64,000 bases of DNA from positions 4,447-68,446 of the forward strand of contig CAYIYK010000002.1 in NCBI GenBank assembly GCA_964367745.1, read 5' to 3'. Made by a program: the position numbers and the translations under genes. This document shows positions 13,516 to 63,810 of the stretch, piece by piece. This DNA is from an uncultured Candidatus Saccharibacteria bacterium. GTDB lineage: Bacteria; Patescibacteriota; Minisyncoccia; Phycocordibacterales; PALSA-1337. A model generated the notes under the pieces. It did not search any database. It was not told the origin of the DNA and was given only the letters and a program-made list of their open reading frames with translations. How positions within the stretch are numbered: position 1 is the first letter of the stretch; every line of letters begins with the position of its first letter.

Positions 13516-13947
13516 ATGGAAACTGTTGCAAAAATAATTGGTTCGTTAATACTCAGCCTGCTGTTACTGTTTGGTATTTACACATACCGAACCAGTGACA
13601 AGGACGCTGAGGGTGGAGTAACCTCCTCCCCAACCCAAATCAAGTTCGGGGTGATGCAAATCATCACCGTCAACAAGATTACACCTGTAGAGGTGGAAAT
13701 CTTTGATGGTGAGAACCGGTCAGAAGTAGTTATTGGTGCAATGGATGAAAAGACGCCGTACACCTATTACTACAACCGTGGGTTGTCGAACGAGGACAAA
13801 GGTCTCGTTCCAGCCCACAAGGACTGGAATAGACTCGGATTTAAACCGAATCTTCAAAAACCAGGTATGGTGAAAGTCGAACTTTCACTACCACCAGACG
13901 CTCCGATGGAGAGCGCGCAGTTGTACTACATTATCAAGAAAAAATAA
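13516..13947 (+). CDS. Hypothetical protein with N-terminal TM anchor, coupled to the upstream gene
   Basis: The TAA of the upstream gene is followed 1 nt later by this gene's ATG. Confidence 0.5.
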   Translation: METVAKIIGSLILSLLLLFGIYTYRTSDKDAEGGVTSSPTQIKFGVMQIITVNKITPVEVEIFDGENRSEVVIGAMDEKTPYTYYYNRGLSNEDKGLVPAHKDWNRLGFKPNLQKPGMVKVELSLPPDAPMESAQLYYIIKKK

Positions 13948-13960
13948 TGCGTACACAAAA

Positions 13961-13990
13961 AGGGACCCACGAGGTCCCTTTCTTTTTTAT
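13961..13990. terminator. Bidirectional Rho-independent terminator shared by convergent operons
   Basis: Stem agggacc / ggtccct with loop cacga, flanked by an A-run and TTTCTTTTTT. Confidence 0.8.
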
Positions 13991-14001
13991 ATATTATTGA
14001 A

Positions 14002-14316
14002 TTAAAGGAATGGATCAGGAACTTCTAGGGTATTTGAAATAAGTCTAATTATTCCAAAAGCAGATAACATTATAAACATTCCAATAACTCCCCATATTAT
14101 GCTGTTCTTACCATTTGTTCTTTCTTCTGAACCCTCCTCATTCGCTATCATCTTTACGATACCGTAAGTAAATACAACAAACGCTCCAAAGAATACAACA
14201 CCGATTATAGGATTTATGATATTTTCAGAAATCTTTGCTATCAAACCACTAACTGTGGGGTTGGACATTATTTTCGATGCAGATTGTGCATTCGCTGTTT
14301 TTACCAAATCAAACAT
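14002..14316 (-). CDS. VirB2/TrbC-like small pilin-type protein (paralog 6 of 6): N-terminal leader plus two TM helices
   Basis: Hairpin topology of two hydrophobic helices separated by a charged loop (EEGSEERTNGKNS). Confidence 0.4.
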   Translation of the reverse strand: MFDLVKTANAQSASKIMSNPTVSGLIAKISENIINPIIGVVFFGAFVVFTYGIVKMIANEEGSEERTNGKNSIIWGVIGMFIMLSAFGIIRLISNTLEVPDPFL

Positions 14317-14317
14317 A

Positions 14318-14689
14318 TTAGTTTGGAACTGTTGGAGGACGAGGAAGTTTAATATTATCTACTGTAGTAGGTTGTGCTGGTTGACCAAATTTAAATGAAT
14401 TCGTAAGTAGGAATACCAATCCCCAAATAGAAAGTATTACGAAAAGTCCTATAACTCCATAAAGTATAGATTGTCCTCCCTTCTTTCGAGCTTCTTCATC
14501 ATCTGCACCTAGAACTAGATACTTCACAACACTAACTATAATCCAAAGTACTGCAAGTGATATTGCAATCTTAATAATAAGGTCACCGATATTCGTTGCC
14601 TTTTGTGCAACTGAGTCAATATCTGTAAGTGTTTGTGCGAATGCAAATACTGGTGTAGATGCAAGTACAAATGCTATAAGTTTCTTCAT
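14318..14689 (-). CDS. VirB2/TrbC-like small secreted two-TM protein (paralog 5)
   Basis: Signal peptide MKKLIAFVLASTPVFAFA|Q; TM1; loop GADDEEARKKGGQS; TM2. About 85% identical to the next paralog. Confidence 0.45.
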   Translation of the reverse strand: MKKLIAFVLASTPVFAFAQTLTDIDSVAQKATNIGDLIIKIAISLAVLWIIVSVVKYLVLGADDEEARKKGGQSILYGVIGLFVILSIWGLVFLLTNSFKFGQPAQPTTVDNIKLPRPPTVPN

Positions 14690-41213: not shown

Positions 41214-41288
41214 AATGGTGACCCTACAGGGAGTCGAACCCTGCTTACTGCCTTGAAAAGGCAATGTCCTAGCCGATAGACGATAGGG
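41214..41288 (-). tRNA. tRNA-Glu (anticodon UUC)
   Basis: I folded it by hand: acceptor stem GGCCCTA/TAGGGTC, anticodon stem TTGCC/GGCAG with loop TTTTCAA (anticodon TTC), T-arm CAGGG-TTCGACT-CCCTG, 3' discriminator A plus an encoded CCA. A promoter TTGCTT-16-TATAGT lies upstream. Confidence 0.85.
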
Positions 41289-41382
41289 CCGGTAAAAAAT
41301 ACTATAGCATTTTTACCATAAAAAGCAAAATTTTTATTTAAAACAAGTTGAACTTGATTTAATAGTAATTTATAATGATGTA

Positions 41383-55456: not shown

Positions 55457-55906
55457 TTATTCTATAGTGTCTAACATTTCATTTCTTAAAACATGTCTTT
55501 TATCATTACTAAATGGTGTCGATATCCAAAATCTTATTGCTTCTTTTGCTTCTTCAAATCCTACAAAACCTGCACCTATAGATAGTATATTTGAATCATT
55601 GTGTTCTCTAGCTAGTCTTATTATCTCCAAGTCTTGACCATAATAGACTATAGCTCTAGCTCCAGGAAGACGGTTACATATTATTGCTTCACCTTGTCCA
55701 GACTTTCCAAAAACTATTGCATGGGTATTGGTTGGATCACTAATCACTCTCATAGCGGCAGGAAGGATGAGTTCTGGATAATTATCACCTTCTTCATAGA
55801 CATGAGCTCCCAAATCTTCAACTTCAAAACCTTCTTGATTCAAAAAATCTTTTATTTTATTTTTCAATTCAAATCCAGCATGATCACTAGCCAATATTAT
55901 TTTCAT
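55457..55906 (-). CDS. rpiB: Ribose-5-phosphate isomerase B
   Basis: MKIILASDHAGFELKNKIKDFL; RpiB/LacAB family. Confidence 0.9.
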   Translation of the reverse strand: MKIILASDHAGFELKNKIKDFLNQEGFEVEDLGAHVYEEGDNYPELILPAAMRVISDPTNTHAIVFGKSGQGEAIICNRLPGARAIVYYGQDLEIIRLAREHNDSNILSIGAGFVGFEEAKEAIRFWISTPFSNDKRHVLRNEMLDTIE

Positions 55907-55983: not shown

Positions 55984-56376
55984 TTACTCCTCGGGAAACC
56001 TTTCCCTGAGTTTCTTCATACCGTCGGGTGTGACTTTCTGACCGAGAACCTTGTTCCTCTTGTCTGAAAGCCTGACCTCACTAATCCTGATAACACCTTT
56101 GTTTCCATCGCTGGTTGAGAAACTAACGTCCGCTCCATCTTTGGCGCAGACGATACTGATTTCCACCTCGCCGCTGTAATAGATGTTGTATTTCTGCCCA
56201 TCATCCACAACAGCGAACTCAACTCCATCGACAGGCTGGAACACGAACCCTTGCATCTGGAATTCCTTCTTCGACTTCTTGTCTTTGTTGAACCCAAGCC
56301 GTCCAGCTTGGGTTTCATTCACTGAAGTGAACAGGAACGCGATGATGAGCGCGAAAACCGAGATAATATTCTTCAT
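55984..56376 (-). CDS. Secreted hypothetical protein (signal peptide), GC-rich
   Basis: MKNIISVFALIIAFLFTSVNETQA|G. Confidence 0.5.
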   Translation of the reverse strand: MKNIISVFALIIAFLFTSVNETQAGRLGFNKDKKSKKEFQMQGFVFQPVDGVEFAVVDDGQKYNIYYSGEVEISIVCAKDGADVSFSTSDGNKGVIRISEVRLSDKRNKVLGQKVTPDGMKKLRERFPEE

Positions 56377-56569
56377 TTTCTGACCTTTTTTTGATTGTTT
56401 CTTTGATACTGGCTGGCGTGCAATATATCATACAATATATAGAAAATCAAGGGGTTTGGTTAATGCGAAGTTATTAGGGTATTATGCATTTTTGACATAA
56501 CTATATAATAGTGATATACTTACTAATAGAGAAAACACCTAAAAGATACGCTATTTCCATAAAAACGTT

Positions 56570-56815
56570 ATGTTACTGACACTTATTACTGTTCTGTTTT
56601 TCGTCGGAGTTATCGGCTCCTTTGTTCAGTTCTTTCTGAAACTGGAGTCTAGCAATATTACAGGTGCTATATGGATAGTCCTCTTGATATCGTCGTTCAT
56701 TGGTTGGTACATTCAATGGCAATCATCTCAAAGAACCCTTGTGATTCTTTCTGTGACACTTTGGATGATACAAATCATCTGCAGATATTGGAGTTCAGTA
56801 CTCCAAAAAAATTGA
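56570..56815 (+). CDS. Small hypothetical membrane protein
   Basis: Promoter TTGACA-17-TGaTATACT at 56492-56520; hairpin plus T-run at 56833-56869. Confidence 0.4.
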   Translation: MLLTLITVLFFVGVIGSFVQFFLKLESSNITGAIWIVLLISSFIGWYIQWQSSQRTLVILSVTLWMIQIICRYWSSVLQKN

Positions 56816-56944
56816 GACATCCGATCTCAACGACCGCGTACTACTTAATTGATAGGCGCGGTTTTTTGTTACAACATTTTAAAATGACTCCTCATTACAC
56901 ATCTCACCAAAATATATTTTTATCTTACTTAAATGTCATACCAA

Positions 56945-57220
56945 TTAATTTCTATTTTTTATTTTTCCATACAATCCACCTATCACTAGACCGATCACAG
57001 CCAAAGCGAGAATAGTGCCAGTATCCCCTAAGTTCACAGGGCTTGTGTGTGCCACAGAGGAAGCTGCGAGAGTTTTGCACTCTGTCCACCATGCTTTTTT
57101 AAGACCAACATATTCACTCAAACAACTTTTGTTCCAAATCAGTATAAGATCAATTATAAATCCAAATATCACAGTGACTAACCATCCGATAATTGAATAT
57201 TCATAGGTGCTTGTTTTCAT
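56945..57220 (-). CDS. Small membrane protein (cassette array, unit 1)
   Basis: ORF immediately preceded by gap 3'-end remnant R1. Confidence 0.4.
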   Translation of the reverse strand: MKTSTYEYSIIGWLVTVIFGFIIDLILIWNKSCLSEYVGLKKAWWTECKTLAASSVAHTSPVNLGDTGTILALAVIGLVIGGLYGKIKNRN

Positions 57221-57262
57221 AATAATATATTTAAATTAACCTCCCCGCCTTCACTAAATACC

Positions 57263-57493
57263 TCATTTAACATCAGACAACCAACCACTCTCCTTAAGTA
57301 CAGCTCGTGCTTCATTTATTTTAGTATCATCAACAAAAATATCGTATGGTACATTTGGACCATGACTACGACCCGAAGGGCTTAGACTGCCCATTCCAGG
57401 ACCAATCGATGCTTTAATATCAATATTTTCTAATACACCTTTGATTATGGTTGCATCTATTTCTGTTGGTGCTGTGAACAATTTAATTTTCAT
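57263..57493 (-). CDS. Small soluble protein (DUF2007-like?)
   Basis: ORF; the family call is weak. Confidence 0.35.
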   Translation of the reverse strand: MKIKLFTAPTEIDATIIKGVLENIDIKASIGPGMGSLSPSGRSHGPNVPYDIFVDDTKINEARAVLKESGWLSDVK

Positions 57494-57502
57494 TTTTATA
57501 TA

Positions 57503-57745
57503 TTAGCTAATTTTCGCACCATCATCAGATTCAGAATAACTTATCAACCTCCAGACAATTACAACCGATGGAATACTCCAGAATAAAACGTAAGTAAGTA
57601 TTGCATACCACTCAGGTAGATTAATAACTTTTGATGCATTATCGAAATCCATGAATGCTAACACCCATAATATTGCTAGCAAAACGAAACTAATTGGTAA
57701 TGTTACCTTCAGGCTTCTTAGTGCGTAAAATATTCTTTTTTTCAT
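57503..57745 (-). CDS. Small membrane protein (2 TM)
   Basis: ORF immediately preceded by remnant R2. Confidence 0.4.
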   Translation of the reverse strand: MKKRIFYALRSLKVTLPISFVLLAILWVLAFMDFDNASKVINLPEWYAILTYVLFWSIPSVVIVWRLISYSESDDGAKIS

Positions 57746-57815
57746 ATTAAATTATTAATTATTTTTAAATTAACCTTTCCGCTTTCACCACATCAATTTT
57801 ATTATATTCTATCAC

Positions 57816-57890
57816 AATTTTAAAAAATCTCCCCGCGCCCACTCTTGAAAATCTGACGATTCAGATACTCAAGAAATGGCGTGTTGGTGT
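57816..57890. repeat. Conserved about 75-bp hairpin element, copy 1 (copy 2 at 58805-58880), adjacent to the gap-remnant repeats
   Basis: Copy 1: ctcttgaaaatctgacgattcagatactcaagaaatggcgtgttggtgttcttatttcattatcaaagaacag. Copy 2: cctcttgaaaactcaaatgatttaagtactcaagaggtggcgttagtgtttaatattttgctatcaaagtacag. Nested stems CTCTTGA...TCAAGAG. Confidence 0.5.
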
Positions 57891-58033
57891 TCTTATTTCA
57901 TTATCAAAGAACAGATTAAAGATATGCAAACTCCTAACCAGTAGCAACTTTTTCGACTATTTACATAGATTATAATATGTGTTAATATAAAACAAGAAAA
58001 CTGTAGCGGCCACACTTGAAAGGAAGCCTTTAA

Positions 58034-58399
58034 ATGAAAAATGAAATTCTTGTTGGGGTAGTAGCAAATGGATCACCCTCTCTCTTAACCACAATATACA
58101 CTAGCGGCAAATTTGTTTGCGGTGTCAAAAGTGGAACTCCATGGGGTAAATCAATCTACATTAGTGCGGACAATTCGTGTCCGATTAATGATGACAAGAT
58201 CATTCGGGATGGGGCGAAAGACGTTGCCAAAACCCTGAATAAACAGCGAATCCGGATTGTAACACTTACACATGGAGAAAGAGGCCGGTTCACTAACCAC
58301 TCTCGAGTGAAGTGTTTAAAACTTCCACCGAAAGAACTTAATCTTTTCGTAACCACTCTAAAGAGATGTCTAGGTAAAGGTACCAGAGTGGTTACCTAA
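58034..58399 (+). CDS. Hypothetical protein, GC-rich, opposite strand within the cassette array
   Basis: ORF with a hairpin plus T-run downstream (58405-58455). Confidence 0.3.
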   Translation: MKNEILVGVVANGSPSLLTTIYTSGKFVCGVKSGTPWGKSIYISADNSCPINDDKIIRDGAKDVAKTLNKQRIRIVTLTHGERGRFTNHSRVKCLKLPPKELNLFVTTLKRCLGKGTRVVT

Positions 58400-58460
58400 A
58401 AACACTACTTAGATTTCCCCGCCGATCACTTCACTGTGGTCGGCGAATTTTTTATCCAAA

Positions 58461-58718
58461 TCAACCCCAATTAGTGAAAGTTAGAGCAAGAATTAAATAG
58501 ATTAGAGCCAAATCTATAATAATAACTAACGACCCTGCAATTAACCACTTATCTTCTTTCATGACTTTAAAAGCAAAGAAAATTGAAACTAGAACTGGAA
58601 TTATGGTCATTATAAGTACAAAGTATAGTGAGGTTCCAAAAAATCTAGGGGCAATGTTCACCAGAAAAATAAGGACTGGTGAGAGTATTACCGCTAATAA
58701 ACTTTTAATTAAATTCAT
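58461..58718 (-). CDS. Small membrane protein (3 TM)
   Basis: ORF immediately preceded by remnant R3. Confidence 0.4.
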   Translation of the reverse strand: MNLIKSLLAVILSPVLIFLVNIAPRFFGTSLYFVLIMTIIPVLVSIFFAFKVMKEDKWLIAGSLVIIIDLALIYLILALTFTNWG

Positions 58719-58946
58719 GTTCTTTAGATTAACCTCTCTACTTTTTAATCACCCAATTTTGTAAACATATTATAACACAATTTTAGAAAAACCTCCTCGC
58801 TCTTACCTCTTGAAAACTCAAATGATTTAAGTACTCAAGAGGTGGCGTTAGTGTTTAATATTTTGCTATCAAAGTACAGTATTATGCTATCGGAAATCCT
58901 GATGAATAGCGAGGAATATCTGATACCTTTGCAATATTTGATAACA

Positions 58947-59417
58947 TTACTTAGTATCATATACTGATCTCGTCATATAGAAGAACGAAATTATTATTAA
59001 AATAATATAAATACCTACAACCAACATCCACAAACTAGGACTATATTCCGAATATCTGTGATCATTACCACATATACCAATTAAATTAAAACCATTCAAC
59101 ATATAAGAAAGGAAACTGAATGAACCCATAGCATCTCCGCAATCTTGTCTGTTGAATAACAATCCAAGTAATTGAAAAATTACAAGGGGTATTAATCCTA
59201 GCAAATTATAAGATATATATTTTATATGCTTCACACTCCTGATTACACTTATGATTAACATTATTAGAGCGATTACAGCGAACGGTAACCATATATATAA
59301 AAGTACTACAAACCCACTCCAGCCTCCAGTTGTCAACAAAAATAACCACCCATTAACGATCAAGTACAGAACGGTTAGTAGAAAAAAATTCCAATTACCT
59401 AATTTTATTATTTTCAT
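58947..59417 (-). CDS. Membrane protein (4 TM)
   Basis: Hydrophobic ORF. Confidence 0.4.
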   Translation of the reverse strand: MKIIKLGNWNFFLLTVLYLIVNGWLFLLTTGGWSGFVVLLYIWLPFAVIALIMLIISVIRSVKHIKYISYNLLGLIPLVIFQLLGLLFNRQDCGDAMGSFSFLSYMLNGFNLIGICGNDHRYSEYSPSLWMLVVGIYIILIIISFFYMTRSVYDTK

Positions 59418-59761
59418 AAATTTTTATAAGATACCGACTTAATAAGGCCAATTAATAAAGTTACGAGACTTACTAAACCTAAAACAATCCATAACCCCCA
59501 AATCATATAACCAAACACGAAATTTCCAGGATCACCCACGAAAACAAGTGGTAAAGAGATAAGTAGAAATAAAATAGTATACGATGATATTGAGATCAAT
59601 CTATTTGATCGCAAAAAACCCGTCGCAAAAAGTAGATTAGAAACTCCAATGGTAATTACTCCTATCCCAAGTGTCGGCTGAGCGTTATCAAACCATCCCA
59701 TAAATAATACTACGGCACCTATAATCAATAAAAGCCCTACGATCCATTGAATTATTCTCAT
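59414..59761 (-). CDS. Membrane protein (4 TM)
   Basis: ORF immediately preceded by remnant R4. Confidence 0.4.
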   Translation of the reverse strand: MRIIQWIVGLLLIIGAVVLFMGWFDNAQPTLGIGVITIGVSNLLFATGFLRSNRLISISSYTILFLLISLPLVFVGDPGNFVFGYMIWGLWIVLGLVSLVTLLIGLIKSVSYKNL

Positions 59762-59850
59762 ATATTTTTATTATATTAACCTCCCCGCTTTCACCACATG
59801 CCTCACAAACGTATTCGTATACCTCATCTCGTTATTGTGCCAAGCGACGC
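59762..59850 (-). repeat. R4: an about 85-bp direct-repeat copy of the gap 3' end. It still encodes ...SVAWHNNEMRYTNTFVRHVVKAGRLI* in frame; gap itself ends ...LAWYDNEMGYTHTLVRHVIKAGRLI*.
   Basis: I compared the nucleotide and translated sequences by hand. Other copies are R5 at 60075-60150 (frameshifted), R3 at 58719-58760, R2 at 57746-57790, R1 at 57221-57262, and partial copies at 57801-57816 and 58793-58815. Confidence 0.6.
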
Positions 59851-60074
59851 TTTCTAATTATTCCGTATAACCATCCCGCTATTACTCCAAATGCTATTAA
59901 TGGTAGGTAAGCAAATTTAATCAGAACCGGATCTACCAATAAACTAGTAAAAGTTAGGGGCTCACAAATAGGACCACTACAAGGAACCTCGACGGTACTC
60001 AAATATATTGCGATCGTGAAAGAAGCTAGTACTCCACAGAAACCTCCAATAATCCAAGATTGTGTTAGTTTCAT
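59832..60074 (-). CDS. Small membrane protein (2 TM, CxxxxC)
   Basis: ORF immediately preceded by remnant R5. Confidence 0.4.
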   Translation of the reverse strand: MKLTQSWIIGGFCGVLASFTIAIYLSTVEVPCSGPICEPLTFTSLLVDPVLIKFAYLPLIAFGVIAGWLYGIIRKRRLAQ

Positions 60075-60150
60075 ATGTTTAAATTAATTTACCCACTTTC
60101 ACCACATGCCTCACCGACATATTCTTGTACCTATCTCATTCTCACACCAC
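60075..60150 (-). repeat. R5: a degenerate copy of the gap 3' end
   Basis: ggtgtgagaatgagataggtacaagaatatgtcggtgaggcatgtggtgaaagtgggtaaattaatttaa aligns with the gap 3' end ggtatgataatgagatggggtatacgcatactttggttaggcatgttattaaagcaggacgattaatataa. Confidence 0.6.
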
Positions 60151-60151
60151 C

Positions 60152-60382
60152 CTAATAAACTGCCTTATTCTCAATTTTACCTCCACAGTTAGCATCGACC
60201 CAGTTTGCATCGTAATCAGATATTTTTCGTACTTCACCATTTTTTAGGTAGTAAGCTTTTCCTCCAGCACCTGGCATCAGATCACCAGCAATTGCATCTG
60301 GACATTCTTGAAGTTTTGGTTGGTAGACTGCATATGCAGATATTCCTATCACAATTACCACAATAATGATTACATATTTCAT
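60152..60382 (-). CDS. Small exported or anchored protein (N-terminal TM, two Cys)
   Basis: ORF starting 5 nt after the gap stop codon. Confidence 0.4.
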   Translation of the reverse strand: MKYVIIIVVIVIGISAYAVYQPKLQECPDAIAGDLMPGAGGKAYYLKNGEVRKISDYDANWVDANCGGKIENKAVY

Positions 60383-60387
60383 AATAG

Positions 60388-61380
60388 TTATATTAATCGT
60401 CCTGCTTTAATAACATGCCTAACCAAAGTATGCGTATACCCCATCTCATTATCATACCAAGCCAAAACTTTCACTAGATTCCCCCCAACCACTCTCGTAA
60501 AAGCTAGATCTGCTATTGAAGCATAACTACTTCCCTTTATGTCTGAAGAAACTAGGTTTTCTTCTGTAACTGTAAATATTCCTTCCCATCTTTTATTCCC
60601 CGCAGCTTTTTTTAATATTTCATTTACTTCTTCAGCTGTTGTATTTTTCTTTGAAATAAAAGTTATATCAACAATAGAACCAACAACTACAGGAACTCGT
60701 ATAGATATGCCATCGAAAAGTCCTTTTAGATTCTCCATCACTTTTGTAACAGCGATTGCTGCACCTGTTGATGAAGGTACGATATTTTGTGCTGCTGCGC
60801 GACCTTCTCGCATATCCTTTTTACTTGGACCATCTACTATAGCCTGACTTGCTGTATATGCATGAACAGTATTTAGAAGAGCCTTTTCCACACCTAGTGC
60901 TTCATCAAGTATTGCAAGCAATGGACTTCCTGCATTTGTAGTGCAAGATGCGTTTGAAGAGATTTGGCATGTACTAAGCTTGTCTTCATTCATTCCCATA
61001 AGCACTGTCTCGCCTTTTACAACTGAACCTGGTTCGTCTTTTATAGGAGCAGTTACAACAACTCTTTTTGCACCAGCTACTATATGAGCTTGTGCTTTGT
61101 CACTAGAAGTAAAGAGGCCTGTAGATTCTACAACTACGTCTATATCCATATCTTTCCAAGGAAGTTTTGTAGGATCCTTTTCGCTAATATATTTTACCCC
61201 TTTCAAATCATAGTTGGTCTTGCCATAAGCAGTATCGTATTTTAAAAGGTATTCAATATTTTCAATTGATGTTAGATCATTAATTGCCACAACTTCCAAA
61301 TCTGAACTTTCTTTAGATAATTTATAAAATGCTCGTCCGATTCTTCCGAAACCATTTATTGCAACTTTTATTTTTTTCAT
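60388..61380 (-). CDS. gap: Glyceraldehyde-3-phosphate dehydrogenase (type I)
   Basis: KVAINGFGRIGR, the catalytic ASCTTN motif, and WYDNE near the C-terminus. Start adjusted to MKKIKV. Confidence 0.9.
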   Translation of the reverse strand: MKKIKVAINGFGRIGRAFYKLSKESSDLEVVAINDLTSIENIEYLLKYDTAYGKTNYDLKGVKYISEKDPTKLPWKDMDIDVVVESTGLFTSSDKAQAHIVAGAKRVVVTAPIKDEPGSVVKGETVLMGMNEDKLSTCQISSNASCTTNAGSPLLAILDEALGVEKALLNTVHAYTASQAIVDGPSKKDMREGRAAAQNIVPSSTGAAIAVTKVMENLKGLFDGISIRVPVVVGSIVDITFISKKNTTAEEVNEILKKAAGNKRWEGIFTVTEENLVSSDIKGSSYASIADLAFTRVVGGNLVKVLAWYDNEMGYTHTLVRHVIKAGRLI

Positions 61381-61417
61381 TCCCATATTATATGATATAT
61401 GTAGTATAATAGGAAGA

Positions 61418-63100
61418 ATGAAAGCAACAAAAGTATTTTTAAAAACAAGAAAAGTTTTATCAATAACAATACTATTAGTAGTGCTCGGTATTGGATATTG
61501 GTCATACAATAAATTCTTTTCAAAACCTCCACAACCAAGCTATGTAGTAGCAAATGCAAAAAGAGGAGATATAGTAAAATCTGTCACAGGAACTGGCCAA
61601 GTCTCTGCATCAAGTCAAATAGATATAAAATCAAAAGCGTCTGGAGATCTAGTTTTCTTAAATACAAAGGACAATGGTACAGAAATAAAAAAAGGGACTT
61701 TGATCGCTCAAGTAGATACAAGAGATATAGCTATTAGTCTTGAAAATGCAAAAATCGCTTATGCAAAACTAGTTAAGCCTGCGGACTTACCAAGTACTCT
61801 TGAAGCAGAGAGTGCATTAAATGATGCAATATCATCAAGTAAAAAATCATACGATGATGCTTGGAATACTGTTGCTGATACCTTCACTGATCTACCAACA
61901 ATAATGGCTGGCGCTGATAGCCTTATTTATAGCAAAAATGGATATTTAAATGAATCACAAGTCAGAAGTGTCTCCCTACTCGCAGTTAGTTATCAAAGAA
62001 AAGCAGGTTTAAGTTACGATAAAGCTGAAAAAAAATACGAGTCTTTGCTTGAAGAATACAAGAACTTTTCAAGGACAAGTTCTCCTGATACCATCGAATC
62101 TTTTACAAATAGTGTTTATCTTCTAACAAAAGATGTATCTGATGCAGTAAAAAATATTCAAGGTACTTTGGACTATGTTAGAAAACAAAAAAATGATGAT
62201 AGTGGATCAGCTGAAGCAACAAGTGCTAACGAATGGGCAAATACGATAAATACTGACTTGGCAAATCTACTAACAGCGAAAACTGCAATTACAAGTGCAG
62301 GTGAAAGCGTAAAGAAAAAAAATGCCGATCTTATAAAACTAAAAACAGGTCCGGACAATTTAGATATTTCTGCCCAAAAACTAAATCTGCAGCAAGCACA
62401 GAACAATTATGATGACTATTTCATAAGAGCTCCATTTGATGGTGTTCTAGCCAGACTATCAGTCAAACCAACTGATACTGTTAGTAATGGAACAGTGATT
62501 GGTACATTAGTATCTTCACATAAGATAACTACGATAACATTAAACGAAGTTGATGTTGAAAAAGTAAGAGTAGGTCAAAAAGCAGAATTAACTTTTGATG
62601 CAATACAAGATCTAAGGATTCCAGGTACAGTAATAACGGTTGATCTAGTAGGCACAGTATCTCAGGGCGTTGTTAATTACAATGTAGAACTTTCACTAGA
62701 CGAACAGGATGAAAGAATAAAATCTGGAATGAGTGTTACGGCAGATATAAAAACCGAAACAACTCAAAACGTAATAATTGTTCCAAATAGTTCAGTTAAA
62801 ACCCAAGGAAGAATGAGTTTTGTTGAAGTATTTGAAAATCCACTTCCAATGATAAAAGGAAATACACCTATAACGTCTAGTATTCCTCCCGTACAAAAGA
62901 AAGTAGAAATAGGAACATCGAATGATTCTTTTACAGAGATTATTTCTGGAATAAATGAAGGAGATCAAGTCGTAGTTAGAACTATCACAACAGCAGTCGT
63001 AGCAAAAACAACTCCAACAATATTTAGTGCAGCGGGTGTTGGAAATAGAAATATTGGTGGCAGTACAAGGCCAAGTACAACAGGAGCACCAAGAAATTAA
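61418..63100 (+). CDS. Efflux periplasmic adaptor (membrane fusion protein, MacA/HlyD family)
   Basis: N-terminal TM, long coiled coil, YFIRAPFDGVLARLSVKPTDTV lipoyl/beta-barrel motifs; located upstream of a MacB-type ATPase. Confidence 0.7.
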   Translation: MKATKVFLKTRKVLSITILLVVLGIGYWSYNKFFSKPPQPSYVVANAKRGDIVKSVTGTGQVSASSQIDIKSKASGDLVFLNTKDNGTEIKKGTLIAQVDTRDIAISLENAKIAYAKLVKPADLPSTLEAESALNDAISSSKKSYDDAWNTVADTFTDLPTIMAGADSLIYSKNGYLNESQVRSVSLLAVSYQRKAGLSYDKAEKKYESLLEEYKNFSRTSSPDTIESFTNSVYLLTKDVSDAVKNIQGTLDYVRKQKNDDSGSAEATSANEWANTINTDLANLLTAKTAITSAGESVKKKNADLIKLKTGPDNLDISAQKLNLQQAQNNYDDYFIRAPFDGVLARLSVKPTDTVSNGTVIGTLVSSHKITTITLNEVDVEKVRVGQKAELTFDAIQDLRIPGTVITVDLVGTVSQGVVNYNVELSLDEQDERIKSGMSVTADIKTETTQNVIIVPNSSVKTQGRMSFVEVFENPLPMIKGNTPITSSIPPVQKKVEIGTSNDSFTEIISGINEGDQVVVRTITTAVVAKTTPTIFSAAGVGNRNIGGSTRPSTTGAPRN

Positions 63101-63105
63101 AAAAT

Positions 63106-63810
63106 ATGATTGAAATTACAAATGTTACAAAAACTTACAATAGTGGTGAGACTAGCTTCCAAGCACTAAAAGGAGTCAGTTTTGAAATCGAAGAAGGAGA
63201 ATTCGTAGCTATTATGGGTCCATCAGGATCAGGTAAATCTACTCTCATGCATATTTTGGGCGCTCTAGATACTCCAAGTTCAGGAAAATATTTCCTAGCT
63301 GGAAAGGATGTATCAAAACTTTCAGACGATGAACTGGCAAACATAAGAAGAGAAAAAATTGGTTTCGTTTTTCAATCGTTTAATCTTTTATCTAGAGCAA
63401 CTGTACTTAGAAACGTTACCCTTCCCCTTGTATATGAAGGTATTGAAATAAAAGAAAGAGAAAGACGTGCGCGTGAAGCATTGTTTGCAGCTGGACTTGA
63501 TGAAACTCATTTCCTTCATCTTTCAAATCAACTATCTGGAGGTCAGATACAAAGAGTTGCTATCGCACGTGCTCTAGTAAACAATCCAAAACTAATACTT
63601 GCAGATGAACCTACTGGTAATCTAGATTCAAAGACTGGAGAAATAGTTCTAGGAACTTTTCAAAAATTAAATAAAGATTTGGGAAGAACTATTATACTTA
63701 TTACTCACGAAACTGATGTAGCTCAACATGCAGAAAGAATAATACATATAAAAGATGGTTTGATTCTTAGTGATAAGAAAAATACAAATAGAAAAATAAT
63801 AAAACAATGA
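63106..63810 (+). CDS. ABC transporter ATP-binding protein (MacB/LolD-type)
   Basis: GPSGSGKST Walker [16 protein letters not shown] signature, [11 protein letters not shown] Walker B. Confidence 0.9.

Follow-up and report, generated by a model that had tools for sequence, protein, structure and literature searches.

The 3' end of gap, the gene encoding glyceraldehyde-3-phosphate dehydrogenase (GAPDH), is a recurrent and orientation-specific insertion site in Paceibacteria-type genomes. Phages and islands that carry an integrase occupy this gene end with near-perfect duplication of the attachment (att) sequence, integrase-less arrays whose unit boundaries lie at repeat cores accumulate at it, and the same cassette is found in different arrays and at different positions. 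The array that we describe lies in a 64,000-nucleotide (nt) stretch of contig CAYIYK010000002.1 (the window, to which all positions refer unless a locus is named), which belongs to a tiny-genome Paceibacteria/Candidate Phyla Radiation (CPR) bacterium. Here gap is the target gene of the insertions, and the cassettes downstream of it are integrase-less units.

The GAPDH of the window ends in ...LAWYDNEMGYTHTLVRHVIKAGRLI followed by the stop codon, and the three nearest Paceibacteria GAPDHs are 83 to 88% identical to it. A spacer of 4.48 kb separates gap from rpiB (Table 1). In gap orientation, the order is cassette c76, repeat R5, c80b, R4, c115-c156, a hairpin-promoter module with R3, c85, and a terminator; next come c121 on the opposite strand, a second hairpin-promoter module with R2, c80a-c76b, R1, and c91. 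Beyond c91 are a terminator-like hairpin, p81 (opposite strand), p130, and rpiB. An identical 5.6-kb stretch (window 56149-61777) is present in an independent assembly (Logan, ERR4405439), and the array is thus not peculiar to one assembly. The sole match with a c76 protein that is 100% identical is that same Logan contig.

Copies of the gap end in the window and in relatives

The last ~77 nt of gap, from the TGG of a W-Y-D-N-E motif to the stop codon, are found again downstream as same-strand copies, and those listed by the first-pass annotation, which was made from the sequence alone, were recovered by repeat finding and alignment. A nucleotide profile built solely from the gap 3' ends of 75 other genomes and searched in the 64-kb window matches R4 (E 5e-13) and R5 (E 2e-3). 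A second profile (the window profile), for which the gap end, R4, and R5 served as the seed alignment, matches R2 (E 3e-3) and R1 (E 2e-3). It also matches R5 at an E of 1e-19, R5 being part of the seed, and beyond the reported repeats, including R3 (E ~2), it finds nothing else below an E of 4 in the 64 kb. With up to 3 mismatches allowed, the 20-mer GTGAAAGCGGGGAGGTTAAT from R4 is matched in the window at R1 (1 mismatch), R2, and R4 only, with 0 matches expected by chance. Within arrays the repeats are ~60 to 85% identical, and their identical runs are short. Four of the proposed copies (R5, R4, R2, and R1) are thus upheld by the profiles and the 20-mer, and R4 does retain an in-frame C-terminal peptide, as had been proposed.

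R3 is not significant alone and is credible only because its ~150-nt module aligns with that of R2 (mean column identity, 81%). The two additional "partial copies" (~57817-57843 and ~58780-58810) belong to the R2 and R3 modules and are not demonstrable gap remnants. A sixth remnant past c91 (~56877-56948), seen by eye, stayed within background in a register scan covering the whole window. The observation that a minus-strand open reading frame (ORF) starts shortly after each repeat was correct, the distance being 5 to 22 nt. The further suggestion that mutation of the repeat had created a Shine-Dalgarno site for the following gene was not supported: GGGGAGGTTAA is a synonymous spelling of the G-R codons, with R4 reading GCG GGG AGG TTA ATA TAA (...AGRLI and stop), and in R1 to R4 the motif is located 14 to 30 nt from the next start, which is far for such a site.

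Relatives were collected as Paceibacteria (Nomurabacteria/Parcubacteria-type) metagenome-assembled genomes by GAPDH protein search, with 80 more loci from a metagenome scan. Remnants were sought on both strands of 147 nonredundant loci (1.96 Mb), of which 135 could be evaluated for gap-rpiB spacing. The conserved gene order is gap-rpiB-rpe-(transketolase halves), with a gap-to-rpiB distance of -5 to 4481 nt, the window having the longest. The first-pass annotation had proposed a search for empty sites, and these are common: gap and rpiB are separated by 40 nt or less, and often overlap, in 49 of the 135 evaluable loci. Eighteen loci hold 1 to 6 extra copies of the gap end each. Each of the 28 extra copies falls between gap and rpiB and has the orientation of gap, and none occurs elsewhere in the 1.96 Mb. 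Every remnant starts, on its left side, with the TGG of W-Y-D-N-E, and in three loci (L071, L042, and L150) a remnant abuts the rpiB start just as the intact gap end does at empty sites.

The content of the site is also variable, as the same annotation had anticipated. Four genomes with 88 to 92% identical gap DNA (including L128/L127, L123, and L129) have four different contents before the next conserved gene, and L128 and L127 differ by one unit. The largest number of remnants, six, is found in L088, where the single-ORF cassettes include ASCH-like and DUF2007-like ones. In L014, a MazG-like ORF comes after remnant 3 in exactly the way that it comes after the intact gap of five other genomes, which is a prediction of a model in which older content is pushed downstream. 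The same array contains two pairs of distantly related ORFs. In L088 (L088:13650-14437), a remnant and the ORF after it form one continuous reading frame (MIAWYNNEVWYMSTLVQHVIKASRLKLKYMKKINIL...), so that gene callers would report a chimeric protein beginning with a GAPDH tail.

Single-ORF units, the probable crossover position, and the integrase family

In 15 loci, ~20 ORFs of 41 to 155 amino acids (aa) fill the space from repeat to repeat exactly. The universally conserved codons of W-Y-D-N-E, TGGTATGATAATGA (window 60446-60459), read TGA-TAA-TGA in the +1 frame, and many cassette ORFs have no stop codon of their own and terminate in the W-Y-D-N-E part of the next remnant. Two examples are c80b and, in L127, the 94-aa cassette ORF, whose ends are both CAA TAA inside the next remnant. 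This layout of promoterless single ORFs in one orientation holds for c76 and c80b and for ~20 cassettes elsewhere; the window array also holds two-gene units, opposite-strand genes, and two promoter-like modules.

Homologues of c76 (70 to 81% aa identity) are located, in every case examined (four other genomes), in an array downstream of gap, at position 1 or 4. In L173, the homologue is at position 1, and the GAPDH is 66% identical to that of the window; in L177/L178 it is at position 1 with a remnant after it (GAPDH, 77% identical); and in L175/L176 it is at position 4 with remnants on both sides (GAPDH, 87% identical). Between lineages, c76, a small accessory protein, is more strongly conserved than GAPDH, which speaks for its horizontal movement.

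The crossover was located from two near-isogenic comparisons, L127 with L128 and L172 with the window. L128 consists of gap, a YceI-like gene, and rpiB; L127, with flanks 92 to 96% identical, adds one 94-aa ORF and one remnant. From GTTGATCATGTG on, the L127 remnant is contiguous with and almost identical to the L128 gene end and downstream DNA, while its W-Y-D-N-E part is much more diverged from L128. L172, an ENA contig, can be aligned with the window between R5 and the beginning of c115. Its c80b ORF is identical to that of the window at 242 of 243 nt, while the neighbours differ. Within R5 there are 2 differences in the right ~35 nt and 12 in the left ~42 nt, and upstream of R5 the L172 DNA is unrelated to the window, a different cassette being present there. 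The right part of R4 and c115 are ~85% identical between the two, with c115 shortened in L172 (L172:526-1062 compared with window 59414-59700) to ~29 codons that are followed by another promoter-like sequence and an ORF of at least 150 aa. This breakpoint is away from any repeat, which suggests that ordinary deletion or replacement also reshapes arrays.

Both comparisons place the crossover near ...GAGGCATGTGG / GATCATGTG (codons V-R/D-H-V); in the gap gene of the window it would fall around GGTTAGGCATGT (codons V-R-H-V), ~35 to 40 nt before the stop. The exchanged unit then starts with the ~35 nt at the right of one repeat, continues with the ORF, and ends with the ~42 nt at the left of the next. 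With such boundaries, the right part of each remnant would represent a former functional gap end, and the present C-terminal ~11 codons of GAPDH would have arrived with c76. The "derived" substitutions that are common to R4 and R5 would likewise be seen because the gap end was replaced on the arrival of c76.

Full-size elements use the same site. An IMG/VR scan for the W-Y-D-N-E-M-G-Y coding pattern yielded five stretches, two of which are on one 40.5-kb viral contig, 3300014208_001117. This contig contains a complete gap, phage genes, a tyrosine integrase of 390 aa (PF00589, E 4e-21), a gap remnant, a small gene of the 23S-IVP family, and rpiB. The phage genes encode an AAA_24 ATPase, a PD-(D/E)XK nuclease, an IstB-like ATPase, a small terminase subunit, a 2069-aa protein, and a protein with a peptidoglycan-binding domain. 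Its attL and attR are identical at 59 of 60 positions in a block starting from CATGGTATGATAA; over the ~20 nt that precede the stop they diverge. Other prophage-like contigs also start immediately downstream of gap, namely L082, L083, and L085 and, in addition, L005, L023, L113, and L141, which have the same early genes.

The integrase has more than 200 homologues, and where the source is named, the label is Patescibacteria or Paceibacterota. Among solved structures, only XerA, an XerC-like protein, and XerD match it, with the alignment beginning at about residue 48. It thus resembles an Xer-type enzyme of two domains that lacks an arm-binding domain, a build that would suit action on short sites. 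We examined three integrase contexts. In L167 and L170 the integrase is followed by an ORF of ~80 aa, a gap remnant, and rpiB, the last two being separated in L167 by a DapF gene on the minus strand; in the phage contig L171 it is followed by the ~80-aa ORF, and the contig then ends at TGGTACGACAAC. The ~80-aa ORF between the integrase and the gap-like att site is conserved in all three contexts (MANKP.QKRN.EIVRLHD.DP..YSF.NL...; L167:7182-7433, L170:7178-7417, and L171:7153-7392). It has no match in PHROGs and is a candidate excisionase or directionality factor.

No such integrase, intact or decayed, was found within the window or within 10 kb of any array, and no search was aimed at serine recombinases. 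A profile of the integrase family run against all six frames of the window gave a best E of 0.41, outside the array, with no integrase or pseudogene, and a phmmer search with the integrase against all ORFs of at least 150 aa in all loci returned only the query itself. A possible pseudogene of the integrase or the ~80-aa ORF near c121 (weak tblastn hits, E 0.4 to 2) was rejected, as the six-frame family profile did not confirm it. The first-pass annotation was therefore right in calling the cassettes integrase-less, and the recombinase for the site that it proposed to look for was found in relatives, upstream of a remnant on the 40-kb prophage and on other elements. Its central proposal, that elements integrated one after another by site-specific recombination at an att site in the gap end, gains support from the loci of the relatives and from the association with the integrase.

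Cargo and other parts of the spacer

The features of the region are listed in Table 1. The spacer between gap and c76 is 5 nt, and the stop codon of c76 is at the beginning of R5. A two-gene unit, c115 with c156 (58947-59761), follows R4, and a homologue of c156 (55% identical) is located upstream of gap in L019. The soluble ORF c121 has a local GC content of 42%, compared with ~33% around it, and converges on c85 at the bidirectional terminator; it has no match in Pfam or PHROGs. When the nine cargo ORFs were compared with Pfam and PHROGs, DUF2007 was found for c76b and a sub-threshold DUF2569 for c91, and no phage family was matched. The cargo, mostly small membrane proteins, would be accessory.

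The first-pass annotation regarded the ORFs as not homologous to each other. This applies to most of them, but c80b (E 3.5e-5) and c91 (E 4e-4) are the top two of 306 window ORFs in a search with a profile of one small membrane-protein family, whose members have a G-W-x-Y-G-K-I-K-N-R tail and adjoin gap or a remnant in L014 (twice), L034, L044, and L096. c80b and c91 are distant paralogues, and the cargo is therefore not wholly unrelated.

Table 1. Features between rpiB and gap in the window, listed from gap outward
Feature	Position	Strand	Description
gap (glyceraldehyde-3-phosphate dehydrogenase)	60388-61386	-	332 aa, intact; Pfam Gp_dh_N and Gp_dh_C on the identical protein
Functional gap 3' end (putative active att site)	60388-60465	-	TGG of W-Y-D-N-E to stop codon
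c76 (cassette 1)	60152-60382	-	76 aa; N-terminal membrane anchor, cysteines
R5, displaced gap 3' end	60073-60157	-	Degraded; 1-nt deletion
c80b (cassette 2)	59832-60074	-	80-aa two-helix membrane protein of the G-W-x-Y-G-K-I-K-N-R family; stop inside R4
R4, displaced gap 3' end	59767-59850	-	In-frame reading VAWHNNEMRYTNTFVRHVVKAGRLI and stop kept; tblastn E 9e-9
c115	59414-59761	-	Membrane-protein ORF, overlaps c156; no Pfam match
c156	58947-59417	-	Membrane-protein ORF; no Pfam match
Module b	58722-58848	-	Conserved hairpin 58841-58803, extended -10 promoter-like TGTGTTATAAT, R3 at 58722-58755
c85	58461-58718	-	85-aa membrane protein; bidirectional terminator hairpin after it at 58420-58445
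c121	58034-58399	+	Soluble, 121 aa; opposite strand, within the array
Module a	57761-57883	-	Same hairpin, promoter-like TGTGATAGAAT, then R2
R2	57761-57793	-	Starts at ATGTGGTGAAAG; without W-Y-D-N-E part
c80a	57503-57745	-	Membrane protein
c76b	57263-57493	-	DUF2007 (PF09413, E 1.5e-6); stop at start of R1
R1, shortened gap-end remnant	57226-57265	-	Resembles R4 with an internal deletion
c91	56945-57220	-	91-aa membrane protein, most distal cassette; second family member, G-x-L-Y-G-K-I-K-N-R
p81	56570-56815	+	Far end of spacer
p130	55984-56376	-	130 aa, signal peptide, 46% GC; between array and rpiB
rpiB	55457-55906	-	Conserved right-hand neighbour of gap

A module of ~90 nt occurs twice on the minus strand, at 57796-57883 and 58761-58848, directly upstream of R2 and R3. 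Both copies contain a long hairpin with compensatory differences (TCTTGAGTATCTGA...TCAGATTTTCAAGAG versus CTCTTGAGTACTTAAAT...ATTTGAGTTTTCAAGAG), followed by a G-rich stretch and the extended -10-like sequence given in Table 1; neither has a match in Rfam. The module might serve as an outward promoter, belong to an element arm, or encode a small RNA. A search of the whole window against Rfam returned one tRNA, and the array returned nothing even at a permissive threshold.

The gene p130 has the highest GC content of this part of the window and is adjoined by no recognisable repeat; it is probably another foreign gene. On the other side of the array, 31 nt (61387-61417) separate the start codon of gap from a divergent HlyD-like/ABC transporter operon (61418-63810), and the promoters of gap and of this operon must therefore both overlap coding sequence.

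The gap-rpiB spacers of other loci contain, as judged by eye, AbiEii-like nucleotidyltransferases, Fic/DOC and Abi-like proteins, and a DUF3800-like protein. Loci with such defence- or toxin-looking cargo are L014:12103-12774 and 13945-14580, L017:1155-1703, L066:8548-9448, and L038:2382-3044, which suggests, with cargo assigned by eye, that the gap site also collects defence genes. A gene for DapF (diaminopimelate epimerase), a housekeeping-type gene, lies inside the variable spacer on the strand opposite to gap and rpiB in L009, L021, L027, L031, L105, L117, and L167.

Mechanism, rival explanations, and known systems

The explanation that we favour, and consider probable as a whole, is that the gap end acts as attB for Xer-like integrases and that integrase-less units have been stacked there by action in trans. 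In this model, the Xer-like tyrosine integrases that temperate phages and other integrative elements carry would use the 3' end of the Paceibacteria gap gene as attB. Each new arrival would bring a ~77-nt imitation of the gap end, and recombination near V-R/D-H-V would fuse the host gene to the arriving element's version of the last ~35 nt, leaving GAPDH intact. The old gap end would be displaced downstream, where it would still form the upstream context of whatever had followed gap. Repetition of this process would have produced the at least five units between gap and rpiB in the window, the newest beside gap. An integrase of this family may have inserted these units in trans, or a phage with tandem att sites may have brought them and left them there. 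Which enzyme moved the window cassettes, in which physical form they moved, and how they are expressed and function are points that we infer. The gap gene is probably the promoter source of the proximal cassettes; c76 and c80b, with 5-nt spacers and no terminator, would be cotranscribed and translationally coupled with gap, and the distal units would use the two promoter-like modules.

A bolder version of this model is one that we put forward tentatively, at somewhat below even chances. It holds that Paceibacteria, and perhaps other CPR bacteria, have an independently evolved, integron-like capture system, in which cassettes of one ORF plus a ~77-nt imitation of the gap 3' end would pass between genomes and be inserted by a phage- or island-borne Xer-like integrase acting in trans, newest first and under the gap promoter, with the last ~11 codons of GAPDH rewritten at each event.

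Several points weigh against the favoured explanation. With the integrase family absent from the window and from the 10 kb around the arrays, action in trans has to be assumed. A circle of ~300 bp is very small for synapsis by a tyrosine recombinase, and the imitation, at 77 nt with 42 nt left of the crossover, exceeds what a simple core site would require. In R2 and R3 the left 42 nt are missing and the hairpin and promoter module takes their place, so that these junctions depart from the simple unit. No repeats can be recognised in the part of the spacer that comprises c121 and p81 (both on the other strand) and p130. The evidence throughout consists of metagenomic assemblies, without an observed excision product or junction heterogeneity.

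Parts of the window spacer resemble debris (opposite-strand genes, own promoter-like sequences, terminators, and repeat-free segments), as would be expected if the units were stumps of full-size prophages or islands that integrated at gap through the same enzyme and decayed to one or two att-proximal genes before the next integration, in the manner of cis-mobilizable elements (CIMEs). Full-size elements do use the site, and exactly this route is described in the CIME literature (PMC5704250). However, the ~20 units in 15 loci that consist of a single ORF flush with both repeats carry no noncoding debris, and such neat ends speak against decay because random deletions should not end so. Furthermore, no fragments of integrase or phage genes are detectable in the array, and the c76 and c80b units recur elsewhere with their boundaries at repeat cores. 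We therefore regard decay as unlikely, though as the strongest of the rivals. Much less likely still is that no site-specific recombinase was involved for the cassettes and that DNA acquired from relatives entered by RecA-type homologous (Campbell-like) or homology-facilitated illegitimate recombination, anchored in the very conserved W-Y-D-N-E-M-G-Y stretch and duplicating the gene end. CPR bacteria are generally thought to be capable of DNA uptake, the repeat start coincides with the most conserved nucleotides of gap, and no recombinase is found near any array. Yet repeats of such low identity with such short identical runs are poor substrates for RecA, the two independent isogenic comparisons point to exchange near H-V, outside the W-Y-D-N-E block, and a dedicated integrase family is tied to the gap-end sequence. 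The confinement of all 28 copies to one orientation and one locus also argues against it, although homology-driven insertion may account for individual events.

In-place tandem duplication of the gap 3' end with a downstream gene, followed by divergence, could account for c80b and c91 as distant paralogues and for the two ORF pairs of L014. It is ruled out by the variable content in close relatives, in that near-isogenic genomes differ by the presence or absence of single units, and by the conservation of the remnants, which have up to 86% aa-equivalent identity to gap compared with 27 to 34% for the supposed paralogous proteins. In addition, most cassettes are mutually unrelated, and the same cassette occurs in distant genomes; the chance that duplication built the array is close to nil. 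Equally negligible is a classical integron array that has lost its integrase (a cluster of attC sites lacking an integron integrase, CALIN). The same-orientation, mostly promoterless single-ORF cassettes, the ~80-nt repeats, and the newest cassette at the promoter-proximal site would all suit it. The defining attC feature fails, however: in folds of the gap end, R4, R5, and two L088 repeats, neither strand forms an imperfect palindrome of the attC kind (z -1.3 to +1.1 versus shuffles). The repeats are moreover copies of coding sequence, there is no intI gene, and the associated integrase family is closest to XerA, XerC, and XerD among solved structures. Integron membership thus fails; the first-pass annotation had offered integrons only as an analogy.

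CPR/Patescibacteria genomes are tiny, and to our knowledge very little is known about gene gain in these bacteria. The gap locus illustrates a concrete, recurrent route by which phages, islands, and one-gene cassettes enter at one conserved site, with different content in genomes whose gap DNA is ~90% identical. It also provides a defined attB/attP pair and a large, previously uncharacterised Xer-like integrase family that might serve as a genetic tool where almost none exist, together with a natural catalogue of small, mostly membrane-protein cargo exchanged by episymbiont-type bacteria. This cargo is plausibly relevant to surface, host-contact, or phage-exclusion functions. Should one-ORF units indeed move on their own, they would constitute a second, independently evolved cassette-capture platform beside integrons.

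The arrangement had been thought undescribed. For the general principle this is not so, as it is established that elements accrete in tandem at the 3' ends of target genes and that integrase-less CIMEs remain in such arrays (PMC5704250); it appears to stand for one-ORF cassettes at gap. Searches of open-access papers, where absence is weak evidence, turned up no account of the arrangement in connection with CPR prophage att sites, CPR integrons, or gap as attB. Within the literature searched, gap as a target and a CPR-wide Xer-like integrase family dedicated to it appear to be new, as do single-ORF units flush with att repeats in an integron-like layout without attC or IntI.

Additive islands in which newcomers push older elements inward and leave partial copies of the target are known as tycheposon islands in Prochlorococcus (bioRxiv 10.1101/2020.12.28.424599). 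They have in common with the gap arrays a single att site, older arrivals pushed inward, scattered partial target copies, remnants of integrase-less cargo, and hosts with streamlined genomes and few other mobile elements. Unlike tycheposons, which use tRNA or tmRNA genes, the gap arrays use the end of a protein-coding gene (the repeats are gap coding sequence, and the lone tRNA of the window is at 41216-41290), and they have no hallmark genes, far smaller units, and an Xer-like integrase.

The likeness to integron arrays lies in mostly promoterless single ORFs of one orientation, ~80-nt site repeats that often hold the ORF stop, the newest unit being nearest, stacking downstream of a presumably well-expressed gene, and highly diverse, largely orphan cargo. 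Unlike in integrons, there is no attC hairpin, IntI, or attI, and the repeat must rebuild a functional protein end. Recombination at the gap repeats is presumably double-stranded and Xer-like, unlike that of integrons. No tyrosine recombinase is detectable in the window, and in place of an integrase gene, attI, and Pc promoter the upstream neighbour of gap is the divergent HlyD-like/ABC pair. Integrative mobile elements exploiting Xer (IMEX) are similar in being integrase-less, in their (here putative) use of an Xer-type recombinase in trans, and in forming tandem arrays at one site. They differ in that the site here is a gene end (no search for a dif-like 28-bp site was made) and the recombinase is phage or island borne rather than the host XerCD.

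Of known concepts, the arrays come nearest to such target-seeded additive islands and to tandem accretion of CIMEs, with cis-mobilization here being putative. An example of the latter is given by the islands related to the integrative and conjugative elements (ICEs) ICESt1 and ICESt3, for which Streptococcus thermophilus provides the 3' end of fda (see the review PMC5704250, citing Pavlovic et al. 2004). In both, a glycolytic housekeeping gene has the att site of a tyrosine integrase in its 3' end, and this gene end is restored by the element that comes in; as in CIME arrays, successive integrations leave direct repeats of the gene end, and att-flanked integrase-less units stand in tandem. Our comparison of loci shows the features of a CIME-type array: direct repeats of the gene end together with an intact gap, integrase-bearing elements at the site in relatives, integrase-less units, and empty or differently occupied sites. 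Compared with kilobase-sized decayed ICEs, the units here are often one ORF of 40 to 155 aa (~250 to 550 bp including the repeat) with no spare DNA, and compared with the ICESt1/ICESt3 islands, the arrays reach up to 6 repeats, target gap, reside in CPR hosts, and have phage rather than conjugative partners.

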